Part shown: one piece after another, positions 2,638 through 63,099 of the stretch
Position numbering within the stretch: position 1 is the stretch's first letter
Layout of the letters: every line of letters begins with the position of its first letter
Source of the DNA: an uncultured bacterium
GTDB lineage: Bacteria; Patescibacteriota; Minisyncoccia; UBA6257; 2-01-FULL-56-20
DNA length: 64,000 nt
Assembly (NCBI GenBank): GCA_963707865.1
Contig: OY970175.1
Coordinates: 489,493 to 553,492 of the forward strand
Reading direction: 5' to 3'
Translations under genes and position numbers: made by a program
The notes under the pieces: model-generated
What the model was told of the DNA's origin: nothing
Databases searched by the model: none
What the model saw: only the letters and a program-made list of their open reading frames with translations

Positions 2638-2682
2638 CAAAACACCTATCCACAGTCCTACCGCTCTGCCCAGGCGGCTCTG

Positions 2683-2692
2683 CGTGGTATAA
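2683..2692 (+). promoter_or_regulatory. Extended -10 promoter element (TGgTATAAT) upstream of the 2748 gene
   Basis: The sequence gcgtggtataat lies ~55 nt upstream of the ATG at 2748. Confidence 0.35.
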
Positions 2693-2747
2693 TTTCTAAA
2701 AAGGAAGAGGCTAAACAAAGGCCGGAAGATAGCAGGAAATAAAAACA

Positions 2748-6191: not shown

Positions 6192-8402
6192 ATGACCCAG
6201 GTTACTCTTGAGGCTCCCCTCTTTGAAGTTATCGGCGCACGTGTCCCGCTCCTTCGGCAGTTGGAAAAGCTCGGCGTCACGACCGTCGGCGACCTTCTCT
6301 ATTATTTCCCGTTCCGCTACGAAGATTTTTCAAAGATCTACGCCATCGCGGACCTTGAACCGGGCCAGCAGGCAACCATCCAAGCGACCATTGAAGAAAT
6401 CTCCTTCCGGCATACCTGGAAGAAGCGGATGAGCATCGTGGAAGCAATACTCGCGGACGCCTCCGGTTCTCTCCGCGCCGTATGGTTCAACCAGCCCTAT
6501 GTGGCAAACGTCCTCAAAGTCGGCCGCCTCGCGAACTTCGCGGGAAAAATTTCGCTTTCCGAAGAGGGCGAAGTGTATTTGAGCCATCCGGCGTATGAAC
6601 TGATACGGCGTCTGCCCAGCACCACTTCTGCATCTGTTGCAGATGCAGAAGTGGTGCTGGGCGGGACCAAACACACCGCGCGGCTCGTACCCATTTACCC
6701 GGAAACGCGCGGCCTTACCTCCCGCGGCATCCGCTTCGTCATGCAATCGGTCCTCCGGCGGAAGCCGCTACTCACGGAGTGGATCCCACCCGCCATCCTC
6801 GCCGAATTCCTCCTTCCCGAGATACGCGAGGCAATCGCATCGGTCCATTTTCCAAAACATCTCGACGACGCCCTCACCGCAAAAAAACGGTTTGCTTTTG
6901 AAGACCTTTTTCTTCTCCAACTTTTCAATCTCCAGCAGAAACTCACACTTTCCCGGGAACAAGCGCCGGCCATCGCCGTCGATATTCCAAAAGTAAAGAG
7001 GGTGCTTTCCGCGCTGCCGTTCACGCTCACCGCGTCACAGAAGAAATCGCTCTGGGAAATTATGCAAGACATGGCGCGGCCACGGCCGATGAACCGCCTG
7101 CTCCAGGGAGACGTGGGCTCCGGAAAAACCGTCATCGCGGCCATCGCCGCGATGGGCGCAGCCGACCACGGATTCCAAACCGCCTTCATGGCACCCACGG
7201 AAATCCTTGCGCACCAGCATTTTGAAACCATGAAGAAACTTTTTCTGGATACCGCGGAGCACGGCATCGCGATCGGCCTTCTCACGGCGAGCGGCGGCAC
7301 CGCCTTCTATGAAAACGGCGTTGAGGCGAAGATGCCGAAGCGCGAGTTGCACGCGAAGGCCGCGCGCGGAGAAATCGCAATCGTGTTCGGCACGCATGCG
7401 CTCATCCAAAAATCAGTGCATTTCAAAAATCTCGGTTTTGTCATCGTGGACGAGCAACATCGCTTCGGCGTGCGCCAGCGCGCCGAACTCTCCGCGAAAA
7501 AGGGCGGGCTCACGCCGCATTTCTTAAGTATGTCGGCGACGCCGATCCCGCGGACGCTTATGCTCACGGTGTTCGGCGATCTGGACCTCTCACTCATCAC
7601 GGAACTCCCGGCGGGCAGGAAACCGATTGCGACAAAGCTCGTCCCGCCGCTTGGGCGGACCGCCGCCTACGCCTTTGTGCGCGGCGAGATCACGCAGGGC
7701 CGGCAGGCATTCGTCATCTGCCCGCGCATTGAACCGGCCGAAGGGCACGAAGGGCAAAAATCGGCCGAAGCGCGAACCGCGAGAAGCGGCGAGCTCAAGC
7801 AAATAAAAACGCTGGAACTAAAATCGGTGAAAGAAGAATATGAAAAATTGTCGGAAAACGTTTTCCCCAATCTCGCGATCGCAATGCTCCACGGCCAGAT
7901 GAAAGCGAAGGAAAAAAATGACGTCATGCGGCAATTCAAGGACAAACAATTTGATATTATCGTCACGACCTCCGTCGTGGAAGTCGGCGTGGACATCCCG
8001 AACGCGACAATCATGATGATAGAGGGCGCCGAACGGTTCGGCCTCGCCCAGCTCTATCAGTTCCGCGGCCGCGTGGGGCGGGGCGAGCACCAATCCCATT
8101 GCTTCCTCATGGCGGATACGAACGCAAAAACCGCGCACGCGCGGCTCAAAGCAATCCTTGAAGCGAAAAACGGGTTTGAACTCGCAGAGAAGGACCTCGC
8201 CCTGCGCGGTCCCGGCCAATTTTTCGGAGAAATCCAAACAGGACTCCCCGACATCGCCATGGAAGCGCTCCGCGATCCGGAACTTGTGAAAACCAGCCGC
8301 GACGCGGCGATCAAGACCATCCAAGCCGACCCTTCGTTAAAAACCCATCCCCTGCTCAAAGCCAAACTGGAACAATTCCGAGACAGGATCCATCAGGAGT
8401 AA
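6192..8402 (+). CDS. recG: ATP-dependent DNA helicase RecG
   Basis: N-terminal wedge region. Helicase motifs GDVGSGKT, DEQHRFGV, SATPIPRT, and FRGRVGRG with the Q motif region. Confidence 0.9.
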   Translation: MTQVTLEAPLFEVIGARVPLLRQLEKLGVTTVGDLLYYFPFRYEDFSKIYAIADLEPGQQATIQATIEEISFRHTWKKRMSIVEAILADASGSLRAVWFNQPYVANVLKVGRLANFAGKISLSEEGEVYLSHPAYELIRRLPSTTSASVADAEVVLGGTKHTARLVPIYPETRGLTSRGIRFVMQSVLRRKPLLTEWIPPAILAEFLLPEIREAIASVHFPKHLDDALTAKKRFAFEDLFLLQLFNLQQKLTLSREQAPAIAVDIPKVKRVLSALPFTLTASQKKSLWEIMQDMARPRPMNRLLQGDVGSGKTVIAAIAAMGAADHGFQTAFMAPTEILAHQHFETMKKLFLDTAEHGIAIGLLTASGGTAFYENGVEAKMPKRELHAKAARGEIAIVFGTHALIQKSVHFKNLGFVIVDEQHRFGVRQRAELSAKKGGLTPHFLSMSATPIPRTLMLTVFGDLDLSLITELPAGRKPIATKLVPPLGRTAAYAFVRGEITQGRQAFVICPRIEPAEGHEGQKSAEARTARSGELKQIKTLELKSVKEEYEKLSENVFPNLAIAMLHGQMKAKEKNDVMRQFKDKQFDIIVTTSVVEVGVDIPNATIMMIEGAERFGLAQLYQFRGRVGRGEHQSHCFLMADTNAKTAHARLKAILEAKNGFELAEKDLALRGPGQFFGEIQTGLPDIAMEALRDPELVKTSRDAAIKTIQADPSLKTHPLLKAKLEQFRDRIHQE

Positions 8403-8696: not shown

Positions 8697-8851
8697 GAAT
8701 GTTCCCTTCCCATGTACAACGGCAACAACAACGTTGTAGCGACGATATTCGGCAATGGTGGCTGTAATTACGCCAACTACGGCAACGTCGGCAACAACAA
8801 CGGCAACGAGAATAGCTACAACTTCCGTTGCGCGCGCTAGCCCTTCAGCCA
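8697..8851 (+). repeat. DGR template repeat (TR)
   Basis: About 155 bp, ~88% identical to the VR at 10420-10575 when VR is taken on the minus strand. All 18 mismatches are A in TR (AAC codons) against non-A in VR. Includes the shared GC-rich 3-prime end ttgcgcgcgctagcccttcagccag. It lies inside a 42-codon + strand ORF from the ATG at 8712; the + strand stops upstream at TAA 8688 and at the shared TAG at 8839. Confidence 0.85.
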
Positions 8852-10024
8852 GGAAAACAACTCAAACACCCGCGGATAATATTCTTTAATCCAAGGGTGT
8901 TTTTGTTTTGTTTTTAAAATCAAATTATACGTATCGGCATGAACAAGGTGCCCAAAATAAGAAGCGATGGAATTTCTGACATCCGAATGCTCCATTACAT
9001 CGCGGTAATTTTCAAAAAGCCACATCTTATGTTTGAATTTTTTGACTATCCGCCGGCGCACATAAACGCGCCACGGCTTCACGAAATAACCGATAAAATC
9101 CATGCCGTAAGACAATGGTTGCATATGGCATTTTTTTAAATTCAATTCAAGAAAAAGACTTTCTTTTAAAAATACTTTAATCGCGCCGAAAAACTCTTTC
9201 AATTTTTCCTTGTCTTTGTGAATAATGTAAAAATCATCCACATATCTGCCGTAAAATTCGCATTTTAATTTTCTTTTTACGAACTGGTCCAGTTCGTTCA
9301 AATAAACATTGGCGAAAAATTGCGATGTTAAATTACCGATAGGCAAACCAACATCTTCGCGAATACCAAAAAGAGATTTTTGCCTCGGCACGATTTTTAA
9401 AAGGTCGCTATCACCTTTTATTATGTAATTTTTCGTCGGGTCGTAAAAAATTATCGTTTCTGCGAGCCACTGCAATTCATCTTTTATATTTTCGGAAAAC
9501 AAGGTTGATGCTATTTTCTTGAAAACCAATTCGCGCAAAATCCCTTTGTTGATATGCATAAAGAATCCCGAGATGTCGGCTTTCAGATAATACCAATTAT
9601 TGTAATGTTCCGGATCTGAATTTTGAATGCGCCTGATGAATTTTTGAAGCCGCTTCATCGCGAAAAGCGTTCCCTTGCCTTTTCGGCAAGCGTAACTGTC
9701 ATAAATAAAGGATTTTTCAAAATAAGATTCAACTGTTCTGACAAAAAGATGGTGGACAACGCGATCGCGGAAATCGGCGGCGAAAACTTCCCGTATCACC
9801 GGCTCTTTCACGGCAAAGCAAATAGATACGCCCGGAGAATAGGCACGTTCGCGCAAATCTTCCAATAGCCGCCACAGATTATCCTCCAGATTACACTCAA
9901 ACCGCAAGGCGTTGATGGTATTTCTTTTTCTTTTTCGGCAATCAAGATACGCGTAATACAGATTTTCAAACGTGAACAGCGACTCTTGGGGGTCAGGTTT
10001 CATTGTTTTACGCTTTTCAGCCAT
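8837..10024 (-). CDS. DGR reverse transcriptase
   Basis: RT domain with YVDD-type motif (GRYVDDFYII) and the DGR-typical IGNLTSQ ([ILV]GxxxSQ) motif. N-terminal LFTFENLYYAYLDCRKRKR. Adjacent to avd and TR. Confidence 0.9.
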   Translation of the reverse strand: MAEKRKTMKPDPQESLFTFENLYYAYLDCRKRKRNTINALRFECNLEDNLWRLLEDLRERAYSPGVSICFAVKEPVIREVFAADFRDRVVHHLFVRTVESYFEKSFIYDSYACRKGKGTLFAMKRLQKFIRRIQNSDPEHYNNWYYLKADISGFFMHINKGILRELVFKKIASTLFSENIKDELQWLAETIIFYDPTKNYIIKGDSDLLKIVPRQKSLFGIREDVGLPIGNLTSQFFANVYLNELDQFVKRKLKCEFYGRYVDDFYIIHKDKEKLKEFFGAIKVFLKESLFLELNLKKCHMQPLSYGMDFIGYFVKPWRVYVRRRIVKKFKHKMWLFENYRDVMEHSDVRNSIASYFGHLVHADTYNLILKTKQKHPWIKEYYPRVFELFSWLKG

Positions 10025-10347
10025 CCTTCGTTTTGCCTGCTTATCTCCACCAGGATTGCGCTTAGTCTTTCATAATGCTTTAGATCTTTTAGGCATTTCA
10101 GGTCAAAAGCCAAGCGGACCAGCAATTTTAATTTTTCCAGTTTTATCCACAATTCCTCCAGATACTTTCTCTTTTCGCAATGATTGTTCGCGATCATGAT
10201 GAGGGAAGGAATTTCATGGCTAATCTGGCGGATCTCCGTTCCGATCGTGTATCGGTAATCCCGGGAAAAACTTCTTGCCTGCAATTCAATTTCAAGGCAT
10301 AGATCGTATGCTTTCTTGAATATCGGCAAATGATCGTAGCGCGCCAT
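10000..10347 (-). CDS. avd: Avd (accessory variability determinant)-like four-helix-bundle protein
   Basis: A 115-aa basic helical protein (IFKKAYDLCLEIELQARSFSRDYRYTIGTEIRQIS...). It sits between the target gene and the RT and overlaps the RT start by 25 nt. Confidence 0.7.
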   Translation of the reverse strand: MARYDHLPIFKKAYDLCLEIELQARSFSRDYRYTIGTEIRQISHEIPSLIMIANNHCEKRKYLEELWIKLEKLKLLVRLAFDLKCLKDLKHYERLSAILVEISRQNEGWLKSVKQ

Positions 10348-10419
10348 CGTATGATTTTAAAAATTATCAAAGCCTCCGCCCAGCCCAAAAACGGCGGGAC
10401 GGAAATAATAAAATAATCA

Positions 10420-10575
10420 ATCTGGCTGAAGGGCTAGCGCGCGCAACGGAAGGAGTAGCTATACCCGGCGCCGTAGTTGGCGCCGACGGGGCCGTAGGTG
10501 GCGTAATTACAGCCACCACCGCCGAATATCGCCGCTACAACGGCGCTGTTGCCGTTGTACATGGGAAGGGCAGTA
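10420..10575 (-). repeat. DGR variable repeat (VR) at 3-prime end of target gene
   Basis: Reverse complement matches TR 8697-8851. VR carries G, C or T at every TR adenine that differs. Homology extends ~14 nt past the stop codon (cccttcagccag). Confidence 0.85.
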
Positions 10576-11174
10576 TTGCTCGCCCATTCGTTGTTCGTCG
10601 TCATCGTGGATAAACCCCACGTACTTGAGTTGTTGCAGGAAAGTTGCCACTCGAACGGTTCCGGCAGGCGCATATTGTTCTGAAGGCAAATCTGCTTTGC
10701 CTGCGTCCAATATTGGGCGGAACGCTCGCCCGCTTCAATAATGAAACCGACATTGCCGACCGAACAATTGCCGCTGCCGGTGGCCACGCCCGCGCTGCGT
10801 TTGTCGTAGTTCGTCATACCGCCATTGAAACAGACCTCGGTATACGCTGCGGGCGGATTCATCGCCACGATCGCGTTGTTATATATACCGTTGTTGGCGC
10901 TCATTGAATTCGTCGTTGTGCTGATACTGGACAACGCCGCGTTGAGGGTCGACGTGCTGATGCCGGCGTTGAGAACGGCGTTATCAACATACGCCTTCGT
11001 TGCCGCATCGCTCGCCGCCGTAGTCGTCGTGAGCCCCGTGATGCGGCCGGGAATCGTAATCACGCCGCTCACAGAAGCGTTCACCTCGTTCAGGCGGCTG
11101 TAAAGGTAAAGCGCTGCCACGAATGCGACCATCGCGAACGTTACCACGATAAAAACCTTGTACTTCGTTTCCAT
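10434..11174 (-). CDS. DGR target protein, membrane-anchored, C-type-lectin/DUF1566-like fold with C-terminal variable region
   Basis: N-terminal TM helix. The C-terminus ...QICLQNNMRLPEPFEWQLSCNNSSTWGLSTMTTNNEWASNTALPMYNGNSAVVAAIFGGGGCNYATYGPVGANYGAGYSYSFRCAR shows the typical FRCAR end of DGR VRs. Confidence 0.85.
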   Translation of the reverse strand: METKYKVFIVVTFAMVAFVAALYLYSRLNEVNASVSGVITIPGRITGLTTTTAASDAATKAYVDNAVLNAGISTSTLNAALSSISTTTNSMSANNGIYNNAIVAMNPPAAYTEVCFNGGMTNYDKRSAGVATGSGNCSVGNVGFIIEAGERSAQYWTQAKQICLQNNMRLPEPFEWQLSCNNSSTWGLSTMTTNNEWASNTALPMYNGNSAVVAAIFGGGGCNYATYGPVGANYGAGYSYSFRCAR

Positions 11175-18030: not shown

Positions 18031-18102
18031 GGCCTCATCGTCTAATGGCTAGGACGACGCCCTTTCACGGCGTAAATCCGGGTTCGATTCCCGGTGGGGC
18101 TA
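18031..18102 (+). tRNA. tRNA-Glu (anticodon TTC)
   Basis: Hand-folded. Acceptor GGCCTCA/TGGGGCT (two G-U pairs), D-stem GTCT/GGAC, anticodon stem ACGCC/GGCGT, loop CTTTCAC, T-arm CCGGG-TTCGATT-CCCGG, discriminator A. Confidence 0.65.
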
Positions 18103-18106
18103 CGGC

Positions 18107-18169
18107 AAAACAAAAAGGGTTTGGAAAGAGTACTCAGAAGGGCTCTTTCCAAACCCTTTTTGTTTTGCT
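18107..18169 (+). terminator. Long perfect hairpin (25-bp stem) directly after tRNA-Glu, bidirectional terminator-like
   Basis: The arm caaaacaaaaagggtttggaaagag has an exact reverse complement ctctttccaaaccctttttgttttg, with a ~12-nt loop. Confidence 0.5.
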
Positions 18170-18318
18170 TGTGATCTCATCTGGGAATCGAACGAGGAAA
18201 GGGGTCGGGGAAACCTTAGGTTTCCCCGTGGAGGAGGGTCGCGCGTTGCGCGCGACAGTTCGGCACCGTGGGTGCCGAAAGCGCAGGGCAGCGAAGCTGC
18301 CCGAGCAGCGAGATTCCC

Positions 18319-18342
18319 CGGTGGGGCTACGAAAGTTTTGCA
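18319..18342 (+). repeat. Direct-repeat copy of the tRNA-Glu 3-prime end (att-like duplication)
   Basis: gagattccccggtggggctacga versus the tRNA 3-prime end cgattcccggtggggctacgg at 18085-18106. Confidence 0.5.
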
Positions 18343-18754
18343 GCCGCCGGAGCAGATTTGGATGATGTGCTAAATCGAGTATGGTATCGAAGTGGCGCAA
18401 GAATTGCCAGGGAAAGTATTACGTTTATTGTACCCCGAATGCCCCCTGTAAATGCGAAATTGTGGATAAGTGTTCTCGGATGGCGAATGTCGCTGCGGAA
18501 CTGGGGCGAAATCGTGAGCCAGCTCGTGATCCTCTGAAGCGTGGGGGAGGGCAACGGAGCGGTATTGGAGATTTCTATCCCAGGCCCTGACGCCATCCAA
18601 CCTAACCGCCATATCTCCCTCCACTCCCCCATTTCCCTCATAATCTGGTTCCAACTATATACACAGGACGTGTATTTGACAGCGTTTTGATCTTGCCCTA
18701 GCATGTAAGTACTAACACCACCGCCACTGCCGCAAGGCAAGGGCGGTTTTCGTT

Positions 18755-19351: not shown

Positions 19352-19412
19352 TACCTCGGATCCGGTCCAAGGAGTTAAATAGAAACGCCGATCACTCTAT
19401 CCCCACCACCCA

Positions 19413-19440
19413 GGTTCTCACGTCGTCCAGCCGCCGGAGC
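19413..19440 (+). repeat. 28-bp tRNA-3-prime-like repeat, copy R1 (outlier)
   Basis: ggttctcacgtcgtccagccgccggagc. Confidence 0.8.
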
Positions 19441-31431: not shown

Positions 31432-31713
31432 TCCGGCGTAGCTCAATGGTAGAGCGGCTCCCTGTCAAAGAAGGCAGCGCGCACTGGAAACGGTGCGATG
31501 AACATCTTGGGATAACGGTGAAGGCTAAACCGTATGGTATGCGAACACCGTGGGAACCCTGCGAAAGCGGGGGCTCCGTAGAGACTAGATACCGAGACGC
31601 CTAATGTTCGCTTTTGGTTTTCGCGGACGACGGCGATGATATAGTCCACGCCTTTTGGAAACATTGGGATTCGTGTAAGGAGATGGTTCCAGGTTCGAGT
31701 CCTGGCGCCGGAG
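31432..31713 (+). tRNA. Intron-containing tRNA (anticodon ambiguous: Asn-GTT or Thr-TGT depending on splice site)
   Basis: The 5-prime half TCCGGCG-TA-GCTC-AATGGTA-GAGC-G-GCTCC is interrupted in the anticodon loop. The 3-prime half GGAGA-TGGTT-CCAGG-TTCGAGT-CCTGG-CGCCGGA-G follows. Acceptor stem TCCGGCG/CGCCGGA is perfectly complementary. Confidence 0.7.
31464..31675 (+). ncRNA. Group-I-like intron (~215 nt) in tRNA anticodon loop
   Basis: The insert separates the anticodon stem halves. It contains a P7-like AGACTAGATACCGAGACGCC resembling the cyanobacterial tRNA-Leu group I intron core. Exact boundaries are uncertain by 2-3 nt. Confidence 0.5.
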
Positions 31714-31747
31714 CACCTAGTAAAAGTATCGGACAGACCGGGACGCG
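31686..31747 (+). other. Putative attachment-site core: tRNA 3-prime end plus ~30-bp downstream flank
   Basis: aggttcgagtcctggcgccggagcacctagtaaaagtatcggacagaccggg has near-copies after repeats R5 (37823-37878) and R9 (43286-43343), and a degenerate copy at 33925-33975. Confidence 0.55.
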
Positions 31748-31847
31748 TCGGTTTTACGCGCCTTCCAGAGCGTCGTTTCGAGTCCTTGACACGTCACCCC
31801 AGCAGGACTAGAACCGGAGTTCTATATGAAGTGGGTTTCTGTTTTTA

Positions 31848-32255
31848 TCAGTCGCAGGTGGATTGTGTTCCTGCACAAGTTTTTTTGCCTTGCGCCTGCA
31901 GACCGGCAAACCCACCGGCATTGCGGACATTCGTAAAACCGTTCTCTTGAAGTATTTTGAGCGCCTCTCCGGCACGGATTCCCGTGCGGCAATACAAGGC
32001 AATCGGCGCATCTTTTGACAGATCGGGCAGCTCGCCCCGTTGAAGCCATACCAAGTCGAAGTGCAACGCACCGTCAAGGTGGCCGGCATTCCACTCCCCG
32101 TCCGTCCTCACGTCAATAAATGTTTCCGGATTTATCACAATTCCTATGATAGCGCTTCCCCCGGTAATCATGCGGTACGCCCCGCCGTGCCAAAGGATGG
32201 CGCCCGCCGTTGCGACTCCGAGCACGATCACCAAAAAGGCGAGGCGTCTCTTCAT
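31848..32255 (-). CDS. Rhodanese-domain protein
   Basis: Active-site Cys loop ALYCRTGIRAG. N-terminal signal/TM. Start taken at MKRRLAFLVIVLG. Confidence 0.65.
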   Translation of the reverse strand: MKRRLAFLVIVLGVATAGAILWHGGAYRMITGGSAIIGIVINPETFIDVRTDGEWNAGHLDGALHFDLVWLQRGELPDLSKDAPIALYCRTGIRAGEALKILQENGFTNVRNAGGFAGLQAQGKKTCAGTQSTCD

Positions 32256-32301
32256 ATCTCTTGTTATATAACGGTGTTGTTTTGCGTGCAAGAACGGTTT
32301 T

Positions 32302-33261
32302 TTAAAGAATCGCGTTGAATAAATAGCCTGTGAAGATAATTCCGATCCCTACGATTCCGGCAAAAATCGCGATGAGCTTCGGCTTCATGACTTTTTTCAA
32401 AATCATGAATTCCGGCAGCGAGAGCGCTGTCACCGCCATCATGAACGCGAGCGTGGTTCCCATTGCCACGCCTTTTTCAGTGAGGACGCTGACAAGCGGA
32501 ATGACCCCCGCAGCGTTCGAGTAGAGCGGGATGCCGACGAGAACTGCAAGCGGCACGGCGTACCAGCGGTCCGGCCCGGCGTACCGCGCGAGGAACTCCA
32601 TCGGCACATAGCCGTGGATCCACGCGCCCACGCCGATGCCAATGACAATATACGGCCAGATTTTTTTGATGATGTCCAAAGTGTAATCTTTGGCGTAAGC
32701 GAGCCTTTCCCTCCAGGCCATCGCGGGCAGACCGATCTGTCCGTTGGCCGCTGCTTGGCCCGCGAAAGATTCAACGAGATTTTCCACTCTCATCTTGCCA
32801 ATCAATATCCCCGCAAGGATCGCGATCACAAGGCCGCTTACGATATATATCGTCGCGATCTTCCAGCCGAACAAACTGAAAAGAAGTCCCAGGGCAACCT
32901 CATTTATCATCGGTGACGCGACCAGAAACGAGAATGTTACGCCGAGCGGCACTCCGGCCTGCACGAATCCGAGAAAAAGCGCGATCGCCGAGCAGGAGCA
33001 GAACGGTGTCACAATGCCGAGAAGCGAAGCAAGGATATTCCCAGTGAATTCATGCTTATGGGACAGGATCGCGCGGACCTTCTCTGCTGGCAGGAACGAG
33101 CGGATGACCGATACGGTAAAAATGATCGCCGAAAGCAGAATGAATATCTTTATCGTGTCAAAGATGAAGAAATCCAATGCCTGGCCGAGCATCGATTCGG
33201 GAAGGACGCGCAGGACAGTATAGACAAGCCAGTCCGCGAAGATCTGTATCGGATAGAACAT
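32302..33261 (-). CDS. arsP: ArsP-like permease (COG0701, TPFCSC motif)
   Basis: VTPFCSCSAIALFLGF matches the conserved TPFcSC motif of organoarsenical efflux permeases. Multi-TM. Confidence 0.6.
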   Translation of the reverse strand: MFYPIQIFADWLVYTVLRVLPESMLGQALDFFIFDTIKIFILLSAIIFTVSVIRSFLPAEKVRAILSHKHEFTGNILASLLGIVTPFCSCSAIALFLGFVQAGVPLGVTFSFLVASPMINEVALGLLFSLFGWKIATIYIVSGLVIAILAGILIGKMRVENLVESFAGQAAANGQIGLPAMAWRERLAYAKDYTLDIIKKIWPYIVIGIGVGAWIHGYVPMEFLARYAGPDRWYAVPLAVLVGIPLYSNAAGVIPLVSVLTEKGVAMGTTLAFMMAVTALSLPEFMILKKVMKPKLIAIFAGIVGIGIIFTGYLFNAIL

Positions 33262-33516
33262 CTACGATGATTGCCCGATCGCTTGGGCGATAAGCTCTTT
33301 TATTTTCTCTACATCCGGCACGCGGCCCGCGAGGACGGGTTTGCCGTCCACCGCTAAGACTGGACTGGACATCAGGCCCATCGCCACGATCTTCTGGATA
33401 TCCGTTACATATTCAACCTCGGTTTTTATGGCTAATTCTTCGACCGCTTTTTGGGTCAGTTCAAACAGCTTTTTACAGGTCGCGCAGCCGGAACCCAATA
33501 CTTGTATTTGCATCAT
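33262..33516 (-). CDS. Thioredoxin-fold redox-active disulfide protein (small Trx-like)
   Basis: MMQIQVLGSGCATCKKL contains a CxxC. This family is commonly ars-operon associated. Confidence 0.6.
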   Translation of the reverse strand: MMQIQVLGSGCATCKKLFELTQKAVEELAIKTEVEYVTDIQKIVAMGLMSSPVLAVDGKPVLAGRVPDVEKIKELIAQAIGQSS

Positions 33517-33517
33517 G

Positions 33518-33847
33518 TTATGGATTGAGCGCGGCTATGGCTTTTACCAGCTTCCGGCCTTTTTCGGTCAGGGAATAATCCACGAATGCGCCGCTCTTCT
33601 CGCTCTGCACGAGTCCCGCCTCGTTAAGATTTGAGAGATGATGCGAGACAAGGGTTTGGGAGAGTTTTGTGTGTGCCATGAGATCGCAGACGCAATGAGG
33701 CGTTTTCATGAGGAGCATGAGTATTTTTGCCTTGCTGGACACGGAGGCGATTTTAAGCTGCTTGGCCGTGGCCGGGTGCAGATCGATAATCCGTTCTGCT
33801 TTATGGCCACCTTCGCAACTACACCTCTTATATGAACGCATATTCAT
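33518..33847 (-). CDS. arsR: ArsR/SmtB family metalloregulator
   Basis: HTH plus metal-binding Cys cluster HCVCDLMAHTKLSQTLVSHHLSNLNEAGLV. Confidence 0.75.
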   Translation of the reverse strand: MNMRSYKRCSCEGGHKAERIIDLHPATAKQLKIASVSSKAKILMLLMKTPHCVCDLMAHTKLSQTLVSHHLSNLNEAGLVQSEKSGAFVDYSLTEKGRKLVKAIAALNP

Positions 33848-33871
33848 ATGATATACCTATGCGGCCAGCTC
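33844..33871 (-). promoter_or_regulatory. Putative sigma70-type promoter of arsR operon (TTGACG-16-TATATC)
   Basis: Minus strand reads ttgacggagctggccgcataggtatatcat about 25 nt upstream of the arsR ATG. Confidence 0.3.
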
Positions 33872-33945
33872 CGTCAACCCGTCCAGGATTCGAACCGAAA
33901 TCGGAAACAAAAAAGCAGATTTTACGGGGCTAAACCGAAAGCGGT
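33861..33945 (-). other. Conserved ~60-nt element with T-arm-like GGTTCGAATCC (second copy), upstream of arsR
   Basis: ccgctttcggtttagccccgtaaaatctgcttttttgtttccgatttcggttcgaatcctgg is ~80% identical to the copy at 21961-22040. Confidence 0.4.
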
Positions 33946-33975
33946 GAGAACACTAGTGTCGGAGCACTCAATATT
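33925..33975 (+). repeat. Degenerate att-like remnant closing the ars island
   Basis: gagaacactagtgtcggagcactcaatatttagtatcagacagaccggagag resembles the tRNA-flank copy gccggagcacctagtaaaagtatcggacagaccgggacg. Confidence 0.4.
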
Positions 33976-34024
33976 TAGTATCAGACAGACCGGAGAGCGT
34001 AGTTAATTCGGTATACTTAAGATC

Positions 34025-34403: not shown

Positions 34404-34431
34404 TGAGACAGGAGGTTCTAACGTCGTCCAG
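34404..34431 (+). repeat. 28-bp repeat, copy R2
   Basis: ggttctaacgtcgtccagccgccggagc. It shares an extra ~25-bp left flank (tgacaattttaggtgagacaggagg) with R3. Confidence 0.8.
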
Positions 34432-34489
34432 CCGCCGGAGCGGAGATGTTTTGCGGAAATAACTCGCTTATTACCAGGGTAATTTTCAT

Positions 34490-35575: not shown

Positions 35576-35689
35576 CGTCCAAAAACACGGAGGGATAGAT
35601 GAAGAGAGAATCAAGGGCGCTGACTGAAAGGAGGCAGCGCCCGCTCACCTAAGATTATCGCCAGACTGACAATTTTAGGTGAGACAGGA

Positions 35690-35717
35690 GGTTCTCACAT
35701 CGTCCAGCCGCCGGAGC
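35690..35717 (+). repeat. 28-bp repeat, copy R3
   Basis: ggttctcacatcgtccagccgccggagc, consensus copy. Confidence 0.85.
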
Positions 35718-35720
35718 CGA

Positions 35721-35759
35721 GAAAAAAAGTAGCTGCGAGAAACATCATTTCGCAGCTAC
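35721..35759 (-). terminator. Rho-independent terminator of metallopeptidase cassette gene
   Basis: Hairpin gtagctgcg...cgcagctac followed on the minus strand by T7. Overlaps the last codons. Confidence 0.5.
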
Positions 35760-36317
35760 TTGAGCTATACGCAGCCACTTTCTGATCAGTGCCTGCTGTT
35801 CATCGTCCGGCGGTGGTCCCAGGCGACTTCGAAACTTCTTACCGGGTCCTTGTAGGGTCCAACTCACTGACTCCGCAAAATCCCCGGCGCCGAAGAGATA
35901 GTCTGGACAAGTCCTGCTTAACGACGGCGGATACCAAGGCGTATTCGGTGGCAACTTGCGAAGTGCAAGCCACCCATGTCGCATCTCGGCAGTAAGGAAT
36001 CGCACATCGAAGCCGTGTGCAAGCTCGTGGACGATCGTCGTAGCCACGGCTTCCGGCGACTGTGAGGAACGAATCCAGATATCGATAGTATGTCGCTCGG
36101 GATCGCAAAGACCCAAGAGGTGGGGCCGCCCTTGATGGAACTTAATTTTCCACTCAGGAAATATGGGCCGCCAGTCCCAATTCACTTTCTTCAGAGCTTC
36201 TTGACCAACCTGTTTGTGACGAAGAACCGATAGGGTTTTCTGAGAATGGATTATTTGGGCAAACGACGATGTCGTCGCTATGCCCACAAGAAATACAAGC
36301 ACGACGGGACGCCTCAT
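35745..36317 (-). CDS. Secreted HExxH zinc-metallopeptidase-like protein
   Basis: Signal peptide MRRPVVLVFLVGIATTSSFAQ and IVHELAHGFD. About 80% identical paralog at 50910-51479. Confidence 0.6.
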   Translation of the reverse strand: MRRPVVLVFLVGIATTSSFAQIIHSQKTLSVLRHKQVGQEALKKVNWDWRPIFPEWKIKFHQGRPHLLGLCDPERHTIDIWIRSSQSPEAVATTIVHELAHGFDVRFLTAEMRHGWLALRKLPPNTPWYPPSLSRTCPDYLFGAGDFAESVSWTLQGPGKKFRSRLGPPPDDEQQALIRKWLRIAQVAAK

Positions 36318-36404
36318 CGTTAGCCTCCTCTAGTGAATTTGTTTCCAAGACCTATATTCCTTGTAGCTTGCTATTGATTAACCCGTCAAGGGACAAAGTA
36401 AATA

Positions 36405-36432
36405 GGTTCTAACATCGTCCAGCCGCCGGAGC
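36405..36432 (+). repeat. 28-bp repeat, copy R4
   Basis: ggttctaacatcgtccagccgccggagc. Confidence 0.8.
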
Positions 36433-37813: not shown

Positions 37814-37822
37814 CAAACCCGA

Positions 37823-37878
37823 GGTTCTCACGTCATCCAGCCGCCGGAGCACCTGGTAAAAGCATCGGACAGACCGAG
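37823..37878 (+). repeat. Repeat copy R5 with extended tRNA-flank homology
   Basis: ggttctcacgtcatccagccgccggagcacctggtaaaagcatcggacagaccgag parallels the tRNA 3-prime end plus flank at 31686-31747. Confidence 0.85.
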
Positions 37879-37951
37879 AGGGATAGCCCTCGGTATGGGT
37901 AAAAGAAAAAGTGCCTTTCTCAAGGCACTTTCTTCTTGGGGAACAAGACTG

Positions 37952-38182
37952 TTACATCTTCCCTTCATGCTGCGCACAACAACCGCAGGATCTCTTAGCC
38001 AACTTCACACATCCCGCGATGATAATAAGAATCGGCCAGATAATATTGACGAATCCCCACGTAATGACGCCGAGCGCCCCGAGCAGGAAATCAAACCCGA
38101 ACAGGATAACGAGAGCCGGTATGGCCTGGTGACATCCGCACCCACAGGTCTTTCCGCCCATTTTTACACCATCATTTTCCAT
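37952..38182 (-). CDS. Small Cys-rich membrane protein
   Basis: MENDGVKMGGKTCGCGCHQAIPALVILFGFDFLLGALGVITWGFVNIIWPILIIIAGCVKLAKRSCGCC. The longer ORF-track version runs through repeat R6 and is rejected. Confidence 0.35.
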   Translation of the reverse strand: MENDGVKMGGKTCGCGCHQAIPALVILFGFDFLLGALGVITWGFVNIIWPILIIIAGCVKLAKRSCGCCAQHEGKM

Positions 38183-38228
38183 GGTACGTAGTCTTGAGCA
38201 CACTCGACCTTTCTGTTCCATTATATCA

Positions 38229-38256
38229 GTTTTAACATCGTCCAGCCGCCGGAGTC
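38229..38256 (+). repeat. 28-bp repeat, copy R6 (degenerate)
   Basis: gttttaacatcgtccagccgccggagtc. Confidence 0.7.
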
Positions 38257-39584: not shown

Positions 39585-39639
39585 AAATGTCCGTATAAAT
39601 CCAGTATATCAAAGTTAGATTTTTTCCAGCTCCCACGCA

Positions 39640-39668
39640 GGTTCTCACGTCGTCCAACCGCCGGGAGC
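39640..39668 (+). repeat. 28-bp repeat, copy R7
   Basis: ggttctcacgtcgtccaaccgccgggagc. Confidence 0.75.
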
Positions 39669-42608: not shown

Positions 42609-42689
42609 AAAGTATTTGCGGTCTTTGATTGACCGATGCGCACATGATAATTTAGTTTGGCAATTTTTGTCAAATCAAGGGCCTACAAA

Positions 42690-42717
42690 GGTTCTCACAT
42701 CCTCCAGCCGCCGGAGC
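42690..42717 (+). repeat. 28-bp repeat, copy R8
   Basis: ggttctcacatcctccagccgccggagc. Confidence 0.8.
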
Positions 42718-43276: not shown

Positions 43277-43285
43277 TCCCAAACA

Positions 43286-43343
43286 GGTTCTCACATCGTC
43301 CAGCCGCCGGAGCACATAGTAAAAGCATTGGGCAGACCGGGAG
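43286..43343 (+). repeat. Repeat copy R9 with extended tRNA-flank homology
   Basis: ggttctcacatcgtccagccgccggagcacatagtaaaagcattgggcagaccgggagg. Confidence 0.85.
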
Positions 43344-43468
43344 GCCATAATAAAACCTGTGAATAAGAACTTACAGCCGGGATCACATCGAAAGCATCGC
43401 CTGCCCTTTTTGTTTTTCAAAAATAAGGGTGGTACGCCTTGGTCTACTAGGGCGAATTAGAGAATGAA

Positions 43469-43999: not shown

Positions 44000-44938
44000 A
44001 TGCTCGGCAGCGTCAAATTTTGTTATTATAAATTAACTATGGGTGGAAATATTGAAGGATTTATTCCTCTTCGCGGAGGTAGGGTATGGTATAAGATTGT
44101 CGGAAAGTCCCACACCATTCCAATTATTGTGGTTCACGGAGGACCTGGGTATCCGCACGATTATCTTGAACCCTTAGAGGATCTAGGAGCGAAGCGACAG
44201 GTAATTTTTTATGACCAACTTGGCTGTGGCAATTCTCACAAAACAATCGATCCTGCGCAATGGACCATCGAGCAATTTGTTGTCGAGCTTCAAAAAATCA
44301 TTGAATTTCTTAACTTGGAGAAATATTATGTTCTTGGCCAATCATGGGGTTCGGCTCTGGCCGTCGCTTTTGCTCTCACGAAACCAAAAGGGCTTGAGAG
44401 TCTCATTTTCTCTGATCCTTATATGAGCACTCCGTATTGGGTCAAAGATGCCGAGCGACTCATCCAATCACTCCCAAGAGAGATGCAGGTTGCACTTAAA
44501 AATTTGCCGAGCGATTCCGAGGGGTACAAACAAGCATCAAAGGAATATGACGTACGATTTGTGCGCCATTTAGATCCATACCCGGAAGCCTGCAAAAGAT
44601 CAGACATAAAAATGAACCGAGCGATGTATCACTATATGTGGGGACCGGAAGAATTTCTGCTGAACGGAACCCTCATGAATTTCGACCCAACGCCGCAATT
44701 TTCAGAAATCAACATTCCAGTGTTGTTCTTATGTGGACGACATGATGAGGCAACCCCTGAAACAACAGAGTACTTCAAAAGCCTTTTTCCAAACGCTCAA
44801 ATCAAAGTTTTTGAAAACAGCGCCCACTTTCCTTTCTGGAACGAGCGAAAACATTATATGCAGACAATCAAAAATTTTCTTGAGACCATCGAGGGGCGCC
44901 CCAAATCTCTTACTTTCTGGCCATTAAGCAGGTTCTAA
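44000..44938 (+). CDS. Proline iminopeptidase (S33 alpha/beta hydrolase)
   Basis: IIVVHGGPGYPHDYL, catalytic GQSWGS, and a C-terminal His region. Confidence 0.75.
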   Translation: MLGSVKFCYYKLTMGGNIEGFIPLRGGRVWYKIVGKSHTIPIIVVHGGPGYPHDYLEPLEDLGAKRQVIFYDQLGCGNSHKTIDPAQWTIEQFVVELQKIIEFLNLEKYYVLGQSWGSALAVAFALTKPKGLESLIFSDPYMSTPYWVKDAERLIQSLPREMQVALKNLPSDSEGYKQASKEYDVRFVRHLDPYPEACKRSDIKMNRAMYHYMWGPEEFLLNGTLMNFDPTPQFSEINIPVLFLCGRHDEATPETTEYFKSLFPNAQIKVFENSAHFPFWNERKHYMQTIKNFLETIEGRPKSLTFWPLSRF

Positions 44939-44958
44939 TGTCGTTCAGCCGCCGGAGC
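44931..44958 (+). repeat. 28-bp repeat, copy R10 (overlaps stop codon of iminopeptidase)
   Basis: ggttctaatgtcgttcagccgccggagc. Confidence 0.75.
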
Positions 44959-46566: not shown

Positions 46567-46627
46567 TCATGCATAGACACCCGCTCTTAATACTACAACC
46601 AAACCCCTGTTTTGTTTCACCACGTGC

Positions 46628-46654
46628 GGTTCTCCCGTCGTCCAGCCGCCGAGC
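46628..46654 (+). repeat. 28-bp repeat, copy R11 (1-nt deletion)
   Basis: ggttctcccgtcgtccagccgccgagc. Confidence 0.7.
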
Positions 46655-46665
46655 CGTTAATTTCA

Positions 46666-47460: not shown

Positions 47461-47474
47461 AGTATACCACCTTG

Positions 47475-47502
47475 GGCTCTCATATCGTCCAGCCGCCGGA
47501 GC
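47475..47502 (+). repeat. 28-bp repeat, copy R12
   Basis: gggctctcatatcgtccagccgccggagc, directly abutting the IS481-family element. Confidence 0.75.
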
Positions 47503-48505
47503 ATGTTTCATGTCCGTACATTTGTCCCCTCGATAGATTGAAGATATTCGACCGGCGTCTTTCCGGCAAGGGCAAGGTGAGGACAGATGGTATTGTACCA
47601 GGCACAGTAAGCGGCCTGTTTTTGTTTTGCCTCGGCCACGGTGCGGAACGCCACCTTGTTCCAGAACCGTTCCCGGTCGTTGCGGTGGGAACGTTCCACC
47701 TTGCCGTTCTGCGCGGGATGCCCGGGAGCGATGAGATAGTGGACCATCTTCTGTTTTGCGCAGGCGAGGTCGAACGGATGCAACCGCGGCTTCATGGGGT
47801 CAGCTGATTTCGGATATCCTATGTAGCGATTCGTAAAGATGGATCCGTTGTCGGTCTTCACCGCACGGATGCGGAACGGTGCGGCCGCAATGACCCTTTC
47901 GAGAAACAGGATCGCGGTTCTCGTGGATTGTTCCTGGGTTACCCACAGATGCCGCCACCGGGTGCAGCAGTCGATCGCGGTGAACTGGTAGAGCCAGTTG
48001 CCCTTGAATTTCCTCACGTAGACGACGTCGATCTCCACCATCTCGCCGGGGAACGTGGCCGTCGGTTTCCACTTTTCCTTGGGCGTGAGACGCTTCTTCG
48101 TACGCGAGAGGCCTTCACGCTTCAATACTTTTGCAATGCCGCGTGCCGAGAGCCGCATGCCTTCGCGGGCGAGGAGGTGTACGAGCACGTCCGGACCGAG
48201 ATCGGTCTCCGTTCTCATAGTCCGGATCTTTTTCACGATATCTCGCGAAAACTGTTTTGGGTGTGCGTGCGGCCTGCGCGATCTGGGCACGAGGGCGCTC
48301 GCCCCGCCACTGCGATATGCCGCCACCCAACGCTTCAGCGTACGGTATGAAAATGGTGCGTGGGCAGCAATGGCCTTGATGCTCATCTCTTTTTCAAGAT
48401 GCGGCCTGATCCACCGCATTCGTTCCTCCGCTGCGTCTTTGGCAAGTGTTTGTGGCATATTCCCCAGCTTACGCTTCGAGGGGCCATATGTATGTGCAGA
48501 GTACC
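47495..48505 (-). mobile_element. IS481-family insertion sequence (distinct from the 57.4/63.1 kb copies)
   Basis: Carries the 316-aa DDE transposase. Imperfect terminal inverted repeats of the type TGTCCGTACAT / ATGTATGTGCA. Exact ends are uncertain. Confidence 0.5.
47508..48458 (-). CDS. IS481-family DDE transposase
   Basis: N-terminal HTH, integrase catalytic core with DNGSIFTN...NGKVERSH. Confidence 0.85.
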   Translation of the reverse strand: MPQTLAKDAAEERMRWIRPHLEKEMSIKAIAAHAPFSYRTLKRWVAAYRSGGASALVPRSRRPHAHPKQFSRDIVKKIRTMRTETDLGPDVLVHLLAREGMRLSARGIAKVLKREGLSRTKKRLTPKEKWKPTATFPGEMVEIDVVYVRKFKGNWLYQFTAIDCCTRWRHLWVTQEQSTRTAILFLERVIAAAPFRIRAVKTDNGSIFTNRYIGYPKSADPMKPRLHPFDLACAKQKMVHYLIAPGHPAQNGKVERSHRNDRERFWNKVAFRTVAEAKQKQAAYCAWYNTICPHLALAGKTPVEYLQSIEGTNVRT

Positions 48506-48616
48506 AGCACTAATTGACGGATTAACGGCCTTGTGCTACAACACTAAATCACGGGATCGTGGCGGCGAGGACGCCTGATTCATCAAAAAAGAGTCTTTCT
48601 ATAATACAATAACGAC

Positions 48617-50457: not shown

Positions 50458-50862
50458 TTGGAGCTTAGTTCGAGCATCGGCGCCGGAGCGGATATTGTAA
50501 TAGTTTGGAAAATAGCTCAGAATGAATTTATGAAAACCTCCCCTCGAACCGTCGGATTCGTTCAGGCTGCCGGTTTGACATTATACGTGAGTCTTTTCGC
50601 CGTGTTCATCCAGCAAGCGCAAAGTTGGTTCTTATTTCACGGCGTTCAAGCTAGTCCTGCTATGAGCATCGTCCTTTTCCTGCTCGCCTTTGTCATCTCG
50701 GCGCTCATCTGTGGCTCGCTGATCCTGGGCTACCCGCTTCTGCTTTTCTCTTCCGGCCAGCACAACGAGGCGATGAAAATCGTTCTCTGGAGTCTCCTTT
50801 GGCTCGTCGTCCTAGCCCTCTGCATCGCGCTTATTGGTTTCTCTTTCCTGTCGAGGTTCTAA
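50458..50862 (+). CDS. Small membrane protein (4 TM)
   Basis: A hydrophobic 134-aa ORF. Its stop codon lies within repeat R13. Confidence 0.45.
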   Translation: MELSSSIGAGADIVIVWKIAQNEFMKTSPRTVGFVQAAGLTLYVSLFAVFIQQAQSWFLFHGVQASPAMSIVLFLLAFVISALICGSLILGYPLLLFSSGQHNEAMKIVLWSLLWLVVLALCIALIGFSFLSRF

Positions 50863-50882
50863 CGTCCTCCAGCCGCCGGAGC
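50855..50882 (+). repeat. 28-bp repeat, copy R13
   Basis: ggttctaacgtcctccagccgccggagc. Confidence 0.8.
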
Positions 50883-50909
50883 GGAGAAAAAAAGTAGCCG
50901 CGGGAAACA

Positions 50910-51479
50910 TCATTTCGCAGCTACTCGAGCCATACGCAGCCACTTTCCGATCAGTGACTGCTGTTCATTGTCCGGTGGCGGTCCCAGGCGACTTCGAAAC
51001 TTCTTGCCAGGTCCTTGCAGAGTCCAACTCACCGACTCCGCAAAGTCCCCGGCGCCAAAGAGGTAATCCGGACAAGTCCTGCTCAACGACGGCGGATACC
51101 AAGGCGTATCCGGTGGCAACTTGCGAAGTGTAAGCCACTCGCGCCGCATCTCGGCAGTAAGGAATTGTATATCAAAGCTGTGTGCAAGCTCATGAACAAT
51201 CGTCGCAGCCACAACTTCCGGCGACTGTGAGGGACGAATCCAGATATCAATAGTACGTCGCTTGGGATCACAAAGACCAAGGAGATTGGGCCGCCCTTGG
51301 TAGAATTTAATTTTCCACTCAGGAAGTATGGGCCACCAATCCCAATTTACTTTCTTCAGGGCTTCCTGGCCCACGTGTTCATAACGAAGAGCTGATGGGG
51401 GTTTCTGAAAATTTGTTTGGGCAAACGACGATATCGTCGCTATACCCACAAGAAGCATAAGCAGGACTGGACGCTTCAT
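50910..51479 (-). CDS. Secreted HExxH zinc-metallopeptidase-like protein (paralog of 35745-36317)
   Basis: MKRPVLLMLLVGIATISSFAQ...IVHELAHSFD. The whole repeat-to-repeat cassette is duplicated. Confidence 0.6.
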   Translation of the reverse strand: MKRPVLLMLLVGIATISSFAQTNFQKPPSALRYEHVGQEALKKVNWDWWPILPEWKIKFYQGRPNLLGLCDPKRRTIDIWIRPSQSPEVVAATIVHELAHSFDIQFLTAEMRREWLTLRKLPPDTPWYPPSLSRTCPDYLFGAGDFAESVSWTLQGPGKKFRSRLGPPPDNEQQSLIGKWLRMARVAAK

Positions 51480-51566
51480 CGTTGGCCTCCTCTAGTGAAT
51501 TCGTTTCCAAGACCTATCTTCCTTGTAGCTCGCTATTGATTAACTCGTCAAGGGATAAAGTAAGCA

Positions 51567-51594
51567 GGTTCTCACATCGTCCAGCCGCCGGAGC
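51567..51594 (+). repeat. 28-bp repeat, copy R14
   Basis: ggttctcacatcgtccagccgccggagc, consensus copy. Confidence 0.85.
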
Positions 51595-51883: not shown

Positions 51884-51916
51884 TTCTTTTAGATTGATGT
51901 TCGTCAACCTCGCCCA

Positions 51917-51944
51917 GGCTCCCACATCGTCCAGCCGCCGGAGC
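51917..51944 (+). repeat. 28-bp repeat, copy R15
   Basis: ggctcccacatcgtccagccgccggagc. Confidence 0.75.
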
Positions 51945-56576: not shown

Positions 56577-56601
56577 GTTTATAAGTATACCCCATCAAAC
56601 A

Positions 56602-56629
56602 GGTCCCCACGTCCTCCAGCCGCCAGAGC
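56602..56629 (+). repeat. 28-bp repeat, copy R16 (degenerate)
   Basis: ggtccccacgtcctccagccgccagagc. Confidence 0.65.
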
Positions 56630-56742
56630 CCTGAATTTTAGGTTTGAGTCCGCTCTATTCTATAACCCACGCAAAACCTTACTTAGAATCGAAGAGTGCC
56701 TTGGGGTTGCACACATGAATTCAAATTTGATAGAATGAAGGC

Positions 56743-57108: not shown

Positions 57109-57392
57109 GAAACGATAAAAACCGAAGTCTTAAGTTGTTCTGCTCCAGGCTCTGAGGATAATGATATGAAAAGCAACCACAATCCCAATCGGGTGAGGAA
57201 CCGCACCCGTAGAAAGCGTCGGCTGAAGAGGATAGACCGGCGGTGGAAGAACAGGAAAAGGAGGAAGAAATAGAATAACCGCACTCTCACGCGTTACCCA
57301 TCATCCCTGCTGTCCCGCCATCGACATAAGCTGCCACACCAGATCTTCTTTGGAAAATCGCTCGTAATTTATGGCAATGCTGCCGGGTAATG

Positions 57393-63057: not shown

Positions 63058-63099
63058 ATGATATCCTCCTCTCTCCATATGATAGCACGCAAAAGCGGG

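Follow-up and report, generated by a model that had tools for sequence, protein, structure and literature searches.

A 29-bp direct repeat, AGGTTCTCACRTCGTCCAGCCGCCGGAGC, recurs in a 64,000-nt stretch of DNA (hereafter the window; contig OY970175.1 of assembly GCA_963707865.1, positions 489,493 to 553,492) from an uncultured bacterium of the Minisyncoccia, in the Patescibacteriota. We propose that the repeat is the P arm plus crossover core of attP, the element-borne attachment site of a large serine recombinase (LSR), and that the region from 31.7 to 56.6 kb is an accretion island at a tRNA-Asn gene; we assign this reading a probability of about 0.7. An original prediction, made from the sequence alone, had linked the repeats to the 3' end of the same tRNA and had the island grow by repeated integration there, with each event leaving behind a remnant of the tRNA end.

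Sixteen good copies of the repeat are present in the window, every one on the plus strand (Table 1). Consecutive copies enclose one to a few genes on either strand, and the ~25 kb downstream of the tRNA are split by the repeat into modules of mostly one or two genes. Fifteen of them lie within 34413-56629 and one stands at 19412, with a partial copy at 18340-18353; the remaining ~38 kb of the window hold no copy. The segment CGCCGGAGCAC occurred 9 times with at most one mismatch when 1.64 occurrences were expected, and nine occurrences were reached in 0 of 100 shuffles. When read by eye, an exact match to the 28-nt degenerate pattern GGTTCTNACRTCNTCCAGCCGCCGGAGC is seen in nine window copies, and degenerate copies lie at 38227, 46627, 56601 and 33960. 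Across 54 unique junctions, each position of the repeat carries ~0.7-2.0 bits of information (1.2 or more at most positions), and this conservation coincides exactly with the 29 bp: the left flank has ~0 bits, and on the right a weak signal is confined to +1 to +5 (often GGAGA). This limitation of conservation to 29 bp fits a protein footprint that ends at the crossover.

The identity of the repeat was suggested by the junctions of LSR genes at related loci. At locus L056, one copy of the repeat lies within the 3' end of a 562-amino-acid open reading frame (ORF) with Resolvase (PF00239), Recombinase (PF07508) and Zn_ribbon_recom (PF13408) domains, where the reverse complement of the repeat encodes ...MLRRLDDVRT..., and the LSR has PDB matches in the serine integrases of SPbeta and A118. 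At L072, an ORF for a 94%-identical LSR and a complete tRNA-Asn(GTT) overlap on opposite strands. The junctions read TGGTTCTAACGTCGTCCAG-CCGCCGGAGC-ATTGATTGAGATCGGG at L056 and GGTTCGAATCCAA-CCGCCGGAGC-ATTGATTGAGATCGAG at L072; they are identical to the right of the 10-bp core CCGCCGGAGC, and to the left of it L056 shows the repeat and L072 the T-arm of the tRNA. An element site (P-P') at L056 and its integrated hybrid (B-P') at L072 would be expected to differ in just this way, which makes the repeat a likely P arm of attP and the 3' end of the tRNA a likely B arm of attB. In the window, the 3' end of the tRNA (AGGTTCGAGTCCTGGCGCCGGAGC) and the repeat have AGGTTC and TCCnGnCGCCGGAGC in common, and this end is proposed as the B arm of attB by reference to L072, where the LSR gene abuts the 3' end of tRNA-Asn; the flank motif directly 3' of the tRNA is proposed as the right-hand crossover partner at the tRNA site (B'- or P'-type). 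A P-type arm was also found in the 3' end of the gene at four further loci with three further LSRs (L074, L080/L081, L082/L083 and L084). An integrase with a tRNA-end attP, which the original prediction had suggested seeking in related contigs, is thus represented by the LSRs of L056 and L072.

The repeat and the tRNA end differ in a consistent way. The gap between GGTTC and TCC is 8 nt in the P arms (L056, L074, L080, L082, L084 and the window repeats) versus 3 nt in every tRNA-Asn, and the span from GGTTC to GGAGC is 28 nt in all P arms versus 23 nt in all tRNA arms. In the A118-family LI integrase, the zinc-ribbon motif occupies positions 16-24 of the attP half-site and lies 5 bp nearer the centre in attB (Rutherford et al. 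2013, PMC3783163). At the level of sequence, the 5-bp offset between the repeat and the tRNA end matches this zinc-ribbon rule of LSRs, and because of it the repeat would be a look-alike of the tRNA end, not a copy of it. The relatedness to the tRNA 3' end that had been noted from the sequence holds, and the letters of the tRNA 3' end and its flank (31432-31746) read exactly as they had been quoted; however, the repeat unit is 29 bp long and not 28 bp, and the copies are not remnants of tRNA ends, since they match the element-borne attP arm, with five extra bases between GGTTC and TCC, in the LSR reading frame.

The same offset bears on a classical tRNA island of a tyrosine integrase, in which the tRNA 3' end is duplicated at every insertion, with a remnant of it staying behind. 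The array does stand at a tRNA 3' end, a true duplicate of a tRNA-Glu 3' end is present at 18312-18331, and the pattern is known from Prochlorococcus islands and tycheposons. Furthermore, two repeat copies (R5 and R9) are followed by a duplicated tRNA flank, as had been claimed for ~30 bp of it: 31699-31746 is 83% identical to 37835-37882 and 85% identical to 43298-43345 over 48 nt (repeat family D15), so that R5 and R9 do reproduce the flank and the similarity extends beyond the acceptor segment. Nevertheless, the 5-bp insertion in the repeat relative to the tRNA end is systematic, the repeat lies in an LSR reading frame, and the ORFs scanned, from the window as well as from the related loci, yielded no tyrosine recombinase (Phage_integrase) domain. 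We therefore regard a tyrosine-integrase origin of the array as very improbable.

At E<=1e-10, a search with the LSR retrieved 6,671 homologues; a source is named for few of them, in each case as Patescibacteria, Minisyncoccia or Candidatus Jorgensenbacteria; the LSR family that carries such an attP is common in Patescibacteria. Because attP lies inside the gene, the C-terminus of the LSR differs by state, and the state of integration can be read from the protein sequence. When the C-terminal tails of the best 120 of the 6,671 homologues (P0001-P0120) were sorted by regular expression, 57 were tRNA-antisense (..DSN.., e.g. ..MLRGQDSNLQP.., which is the antisense T-arm) and 10 were P-arm (LRxLDDVRT); a few more of those sorted as 'other' looked P-arm-like by eye, and many end right after ML(R/P). 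Many tails in the P-arm state read ...LRALDDVRTALQxITGxSPFAxVRxW, and the C-terminal ~10-30 residues vary with the state. The elements at L072 and L074 carry replication-type genes (with a small terminase in addition at L074), and those at L080 and L082 carry conjugation genes (TrwB-like, Replic_Relax, DUF87). In viral contigs, a single LSR query returned no close relative, and an alignment query returned three distant LSRs, with a tRNA beyond the match in two of them and a tRNA-like fragment at the 3' end in one.

Relatives of the array were sought by scanning one genome per species and, in addition, metagenomes. In the former scan, repeat arrays were present only in two Minisyncoccia metagenome-assembled genomes (MAGs), the other ~50 matches being single chance matches in high-GC genomes; the latter yielded 17 further stretches, of which most have multiple copies that all point the same way and some have just one, and many of these stretches come from the same populations. 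Arrays lie downstream of tRNA-Asn, in the orientation of the tRNA, in the window and at L013, L055, L067, L062 and L069 (the sequences of L055 and L067 are one and the same). What follows the tRNA as the first module varies among these arrays: an ars operon in the window and, elsewhere, orotidine 5'-monophosphate decarboxylase, a helicase, GIY-YIG plus HATPase, or proteins that match no Pfam family. Among these first modules, no integrase adjoins the tRNA-Asn of the array-bearing relatives, and no empty site was found in siblings or related loci, where the original prediction had suggested looking for one. Altogether, these data support the view that 31.7-56.6 kb is a tRNA-anchored, recombinase-built variable island. 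Repeated integration at the tRNA, as first envisaged, is borne out by the tRNA-anchored arrays with their differing first modules; the enzyme, however, is an LSR, and it is absent from the window.

The full-length tRNA gene at 31432-31714 was called as a tRNA neither by ARAGORN nor by an Rfam scan at the gathering threshold. When 210 nt (31466-31675) were cut out, a 73-nt tRNA-Asn(GTT) resulted, which ARAGORN accepted. In a permissive Rfam scan, 31451-31668 matched the group I intron model (22.6 bits, E=0.0011), and the homologous insert of L069 scored 35.4 bits (E=1.7e-7) against the same model, both below the gathering score of 50; moreover, L013, from the Minisyncoccia MAG SPRUCE 393, has an identical tRNA without the insert and a homologous upstream flank. 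Taken together, the ARAGORN call after excision, the insert-free tRNA of L013 and the Rfam matches identify a tRNA-Asn(GUU) with a putative group I intron, where the assignment of the insert draws on sub-threshold Rfam scores and on a precise, conserved insertion point. The intron is present in the window (31466-31675) and in L069 (10534-10828; ~75% nucleotide identity over the tRNA region) but absent from L013 (7437-7509), which is otherwise syntenic, and it is therefore polymorphic among related Minisyncoccia.

In the proposed course of events, an LSR element would integrate at tRNA-Asn by recombination of attP, which sits in the 3' end of the LSR gene, with attB, and integration would leave the LSR gene reading antisense into the tRNA (attL) and a P arm at the far end of the insert (attR). 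Successive insertions at tRNA-Asn would then stack modules, each ending in a P arm, with the recombinase-bearing parts having since gone. Because each earlier event would have left a P arm downstream, the tRNA-side site could recombine with any of these arms upon excision. The route that we prefer is cis-mobilisation, in which an integrated LSR element would excise via alternative downstream P sites, so that modules would be captured and later left behind; the integrase-less modules may alternatively have been moved in trans.

Several observations weigh against this reading. A Pfam scan of most of the large ORFs of the window (those at 337-5192 excepted) revealed no LSR or other site-specific recombinase domain, and tblastn with the LSR over the whole 64-kb window found no LSR gene body. 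Dyad symmetry could not be demonstrated at the sites: at the best-scoring centres the two arms match at 8-11 of 25 positions compared to ~6 by chance (one in four), and the central dinucleotide cannot be placed within CGGAGC; in addition, the right flanks of the repeats are poorly conserved, and the left arm of the site that closes the ars module is unlike both the repeat and the tRNA, with no recognisable P arm. At L074, L084 and L082/L083, an LSR gene with an intact P-P' lies shortly downstream of a tRNA (a damaged tRNA-like gene in the case of L082/L083) without abutting it, an arrangement that a simple integration model does not predict. Finally, as far as the account in PMC3783163 goes, the serine integrases that have been studied recombine only attP with attB, or attL with attR together with a directionality factor, and under these canonical pairing rules 16 integrase-less modules therefore need extra assumptions.

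The tRNA-Asn-like gene at L083 (11776-11848, minus strand) has the anticodon GCT and a 3' acceptor that does not pair with the 5' end; it lies ~150 bp from the P arm of the LSR and looks like a damaged copy of a tRNA at an integration hotspot.

The absence of a recombinase from the window would also be accounted for if the repeats were dead scars, that is, functionless last pieces of decayed LSR elements that change only by deletion or homologous recombination. Several copies are degenerate, as listed above, and some right flanks in the window keep short remnants of an LSR 3' end, amounting to the last ~10-35 codons (weak tblastn matches, E 0.5-6.5) and nothing larger. However, neutral decay should leave pieces of integrase pseudogenes of all sizes, and none are present; moreover, near-identity across species is limited to the 29 bp, with no conservation in either flank, and nine window copies match the degenerate pattern exactly. 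We consider it unlikely that the repeats are scars of this kind.

The modules between the sites have boundaries of their own. One module is duplicated within the window (35689-36432 and 50854-51594, ~90% identity), and the homology takes in both flanking repeats, from the first base of the left one to the last base of the right one, beyond which the sequences are unrelated. L028 has a counterpart of the module at 37861-38252 (80% identity) that stands there among different neighbouring modules, and another small module is common to L013 and L028. Such observations bring to mind an integron-like platform, with tRNA-Asn as the docking site and the P arm in the role of attC, on which single-gene cassettes would be excised as circles by recombination of the 29-bp sites on either side and put back, at the tRNA or at the integrase-proximal site, in trans by an LSR that is encoded elsewhere and whose own gene ends in the matching site; Minisyncoccia would then possess a serine-recombinase counterpart of the integron. 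A duplicate bounded by repeat edges and modules shared by several genomes, once beside different neighbours, would be natural products of such a platform, and the same holds for the one or few genes between neighbouring sites, for a site that is conserved exactly over a protein-sized footprint at the 54 junctions from several populations, and for L074, where two integrase-less genes separate the tRNA from an LSR gene whose P-P' is intact. Conversely, no circles or empty sites were seen, the right half-sites are unconserved, some of the units hold five or six genes or housekeeping-like genes (GlmS, DEAD-box helicase), and the recombination called for would pair P-x with P-x or attP with attL, which is disallowed for the serine integrases studied. 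We hold an integron-like platform to be possible, albeit doubtful.

A regulatory or structural intergenic repeat that undergoes no site-specific recombination (a terminator, a promoter, an attC-like hairpin, or a repeat similar to repetitive extragenic palindromic sequences) was also weighed. The copies are intergenic, and many of the downstream plus-strand genes have a TATAAT ~12-20 bp after the repeat. Nonetheless, the copies all point the same way despite genes on either strand, which led us to reject a promoter or terminator role, and the copies are clustered beside tRNAs, not spread over the window, and are embedded in the att junctions of LSRs. Folding of 10 sites with their flanks as DNA gave z-scores of -1.8 to +1.5 and no common hairpin, and an attC-like hairpin was rejected on these grounds. 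We give a regulatory or structural role hardly any credence.

Three other candidates were tried and set aside. A palindromic site of the dif/Xer type was rejected by inspection because its arms are not inverted copies of each other. A CRISPR (clustered regularly interspaced short palindromic repeats) array was rejected in view of the spacing of the copies (350-4700 bp from repeat to repeat), the genes in the intervals and the lack of a Cas domain in the ORFs scanned. A link to IS481 elements was likewise rejected, since one insertion sequence merely lies 8 bp past a repeat and the other two copies are outside the array.

The first module after the tRNA is an arsenic-type operon on the minus strand, as originally described for 31848-33847, and its ArsR, thioredoxin-like, ArsP_1 and rhodanese genes are confirmed. 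A degenerate site does close this module, although it lies ~25 bp further to the right than the 33925-33975 first given for it and extends to ~33997; its variant of the flank motif resembles the tRNA flank of the sibling L013. It is plausible that the ars unit was the first integrated unit; counting against this are a distal site too degenerate to type and a tRNA that is now followed by the flank motif, with no integrase.

Two variants of the flank motif (31715-31746 and 33968-33997 in the window; ~7410-7436 and 6570-6592 in L013) are exchanged between the siblings. The variant on the tRNA side of the window is that of the distal site of L013, where it follows a foreign tRNA-like 3' end (TTCAAGTCCGACTTGGGGAGCACC), and the variant on the tRNA side of L013 is that of the distal site (33968-33997) of the window.

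Table 1. Coordinates of the tRNA-Asn gene, the ars module, the repeat copies and the associated sites in the window.
Feature	Coordinates	Strand	Remarks
tRNA-Asn(GUU)	31432-31714	+	Exons 31432-31465 and 31676-31714; putative group I intron 31466-31675 (210 nt) after U35
Flank motif ACCTAGTAAAAGTATCGGACAGACCGGG	31715-31746	+	Directly 3' of the tRNA
ars module	31848-33847	-	First after the tRNA; arsR (ArsR, 33518-33847), ArsE-like thioredoxin (MTH895/ArsE thioredoxin-like, 33262-33516), ArsP_1 permease (32302-33261), rhodanese (31848-32291)
Degenerate closing site	33960-33997	+	CGGAGCAC at 33960-33967, then flank-motif variant TCAATATTTAGTATCAGACAGACCGGAG (D19)
Repeat, copy 1 of main array	34413-34441	+	Proposed P arm plus core
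Repeat	35689-35717	+	Left edge of duplicated module
Repeat	36404-36432	+	Right edge of duplicated module
Repeat and flank motif	37822-37882	+	R5 of the original prediction; repeat 37822-37850, flank motif 37851-37882
Repeat, 5' part degenerate	38227-38255	+	Module on its left is 37861-38252
Repeat with one extra G	39639-39668	+	Right flank TTGATGCGGACAAGAG resembles LSR gene 3' end
Repeat	42689-42717	+	
Repeat and flank motif	43285-43345	+	R9; repeat 43285-43313, flank motif 43314-43345; module start common to L013
Repeat	44930-44958	+	
Repeat, 3' end degenerate	46627-46655	+	
Repeat	47474-47502	+	IS481-like element inserted 8 bp to the right
Repeat	50854-50882	+	Left edge of second copy of duplicated module
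Repeat	51566-51594	+	Right edge of second copy of duplicated module
Repeat	51916-51944	+	
Last array repeat	56601-56629	+	T-loop-like fragment AGGTTTGAGTCC 10 nt further on
Outlying perfect repeat	19412-19440	+	Closes NYN-domain module downstream of tRNA-Glu
Hybrid site	18312-18353	+	tRNA-Glu 3' end duplicate (GATTCCCCGGTGGGGCTACG), 8 nt, then GCAGCCGCCGGAGC (repeat 3' part)

Outside the main array, the 3' end of tRNA-Glu(TTC), GATTCCCGGTGGGGCTACG (region 18031-18353), has a second copy ~210 bp downstream at 18312-18331. The region 18031-18353, together with the NYN module up to 19412, has the appearance of a further accretion site, a small one, at a different tRNA. T-loop-like fragments are found ~10 nt past a repeat in the window (AGGTTTGAGTCC, 56640-56655) and at L055 (AGATTCGAGTCC, ~2780-2795, minus strand), possibly what is left of tRNA 3' ends that were displaced.

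The only mobility genes found in the window are three IS481-type transposases and the reverse transcriptase of a probable diversity-generating retroelement (DGR). The IS481-type elements, with DDE transposases, are at 47511-48580, 57300-58480 and 63000-64000; the copies at ~57.4-58.4 kb and ~63.1-64.0 kb align as near-identical, whereas the third (47.5-48.6 kb) has diverged. The probable DGR, at 8837-11174 on the minus strand, comprises an RVT_1 reverse transcriptase (8837-10024), a bAvd-like accessory gene (10000-10347) and an adjacent 246-amino-acid ORF, which may be the target, and the GC fraction falls to 0.39 there. An 814-amino-acid ORF (2748-5192) contains tandem repeats of ~120-150 bp at 4000-4880 (families D4, D8, D9 and D12). 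A HepT-like ribonuclease (5232-5696) and an adjoining 146-amino-acid ORF, at 5232-6129 on the minus strand, may form a HepT/MNT toxin-antitoxin pair.

Genomes of the Candidate Phyla Radiation (CPR)/Patescibacteria are ~1 Mb in size, and to our knowledge the routes by which these bacteria gain genes are poorly characterised. The tRNA-Asn array takes up ~25 kb of a contig of ~0.9 Mb and differs between relatives, and it would represent a concrete and testable route of gene flux in the CPR. Matched attP and attB sequences were obtained for a very large LSR clade (6,671 proteins), and its two unusual features, an attP within the gene and a dense accumulation of sites, bear on the control of directionality in serine integrases as well as on the mining of integrases for genome engineering. 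The literature searched, the coverage of which was incomplete, contained no description of such arrays, of integrons in Patescibacteria, of LSR cassette arrays, of integron-like systems with serine recombinases or of the sites of this LSR clade.

Among known systems, the attachment sites of LSRs (A118/LI, Bxb1, phiC31 and SPbeta) are similar in their domain set (with a sequence match for A118 and SPbeta), in a short shared core, in an outer motif that is 5 bp further from the centre in the element arm, and in the hybrids B-P' and P-x that follow integration. They differ from the present case, in which attP lies within the 3' coding end of the recombinase gene itself, integration targets the 3' end of a tRNA, and P arms form a dense array that the canonical logic of attP x attB does not predict. 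The staphylococcal cassette chromosome (SCC) elements, including SCCmec, which are inserted at rlmH by the Ccr LSRs, are alike in their insertion at the 3' end of a conserved gene and in their tandem units bounded by att sites, some of which lack a recombinase. However, SCC units are typically much larger (an extraction tool takes 1-200 kb per element) and few per genome, whereas here there are 16 sites, 15 of them within ~22 kb and often with a single gene between them, in addition to a tRNA anchor, a CPR host and a different LSR clade.

Tycheposons of Prochlorococcus are likewise tRNA-anchored islands of streamlined genomes. With each new integration at a given tRNA, older elements move further inward, and partial tRNA repeats as well as integrase-less cargo stay behind; elements of this type mostly have tyrosine recombinases (910/937; Hackl et al., bioRxiv 10.1101/2020.12.28.424599). 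Dissimilar from tycheposons, the repeats of which are true partial tRNAs, the repeat described here would be the tRNA-mimicking arm of the element, and the spacing is that of cassettes. Integrons resemble the array in layout only, with short modules arranged in one direction, each with a conserved terminal site, a fixed anchor, and duplicated or shared cassettes; here, however, no IntI-type tyrosine recombinase was found in the ORFs scanned, the sites are linear 29-bp arms without attC hairpins, and the genes lie on both strands, often with a promoter-like TATAAT of their own.

A last comparison concerns the cis-mobilizable elements (CIMEs) of integrative and conjugative elements (ICEs) such as ICESt3, where resident units that are flanked by att sites and lack an integrase are captured and moved once an incoming element recombines with alternative att sites. 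Such accretion has been described for ICEs with tyrosine integrases and for two or three units. The capture of integrase-less, att-flanked units is the feature that the island would share with CIMEs, although here the enzyme would be a serine recombinase and the units form a dense array.

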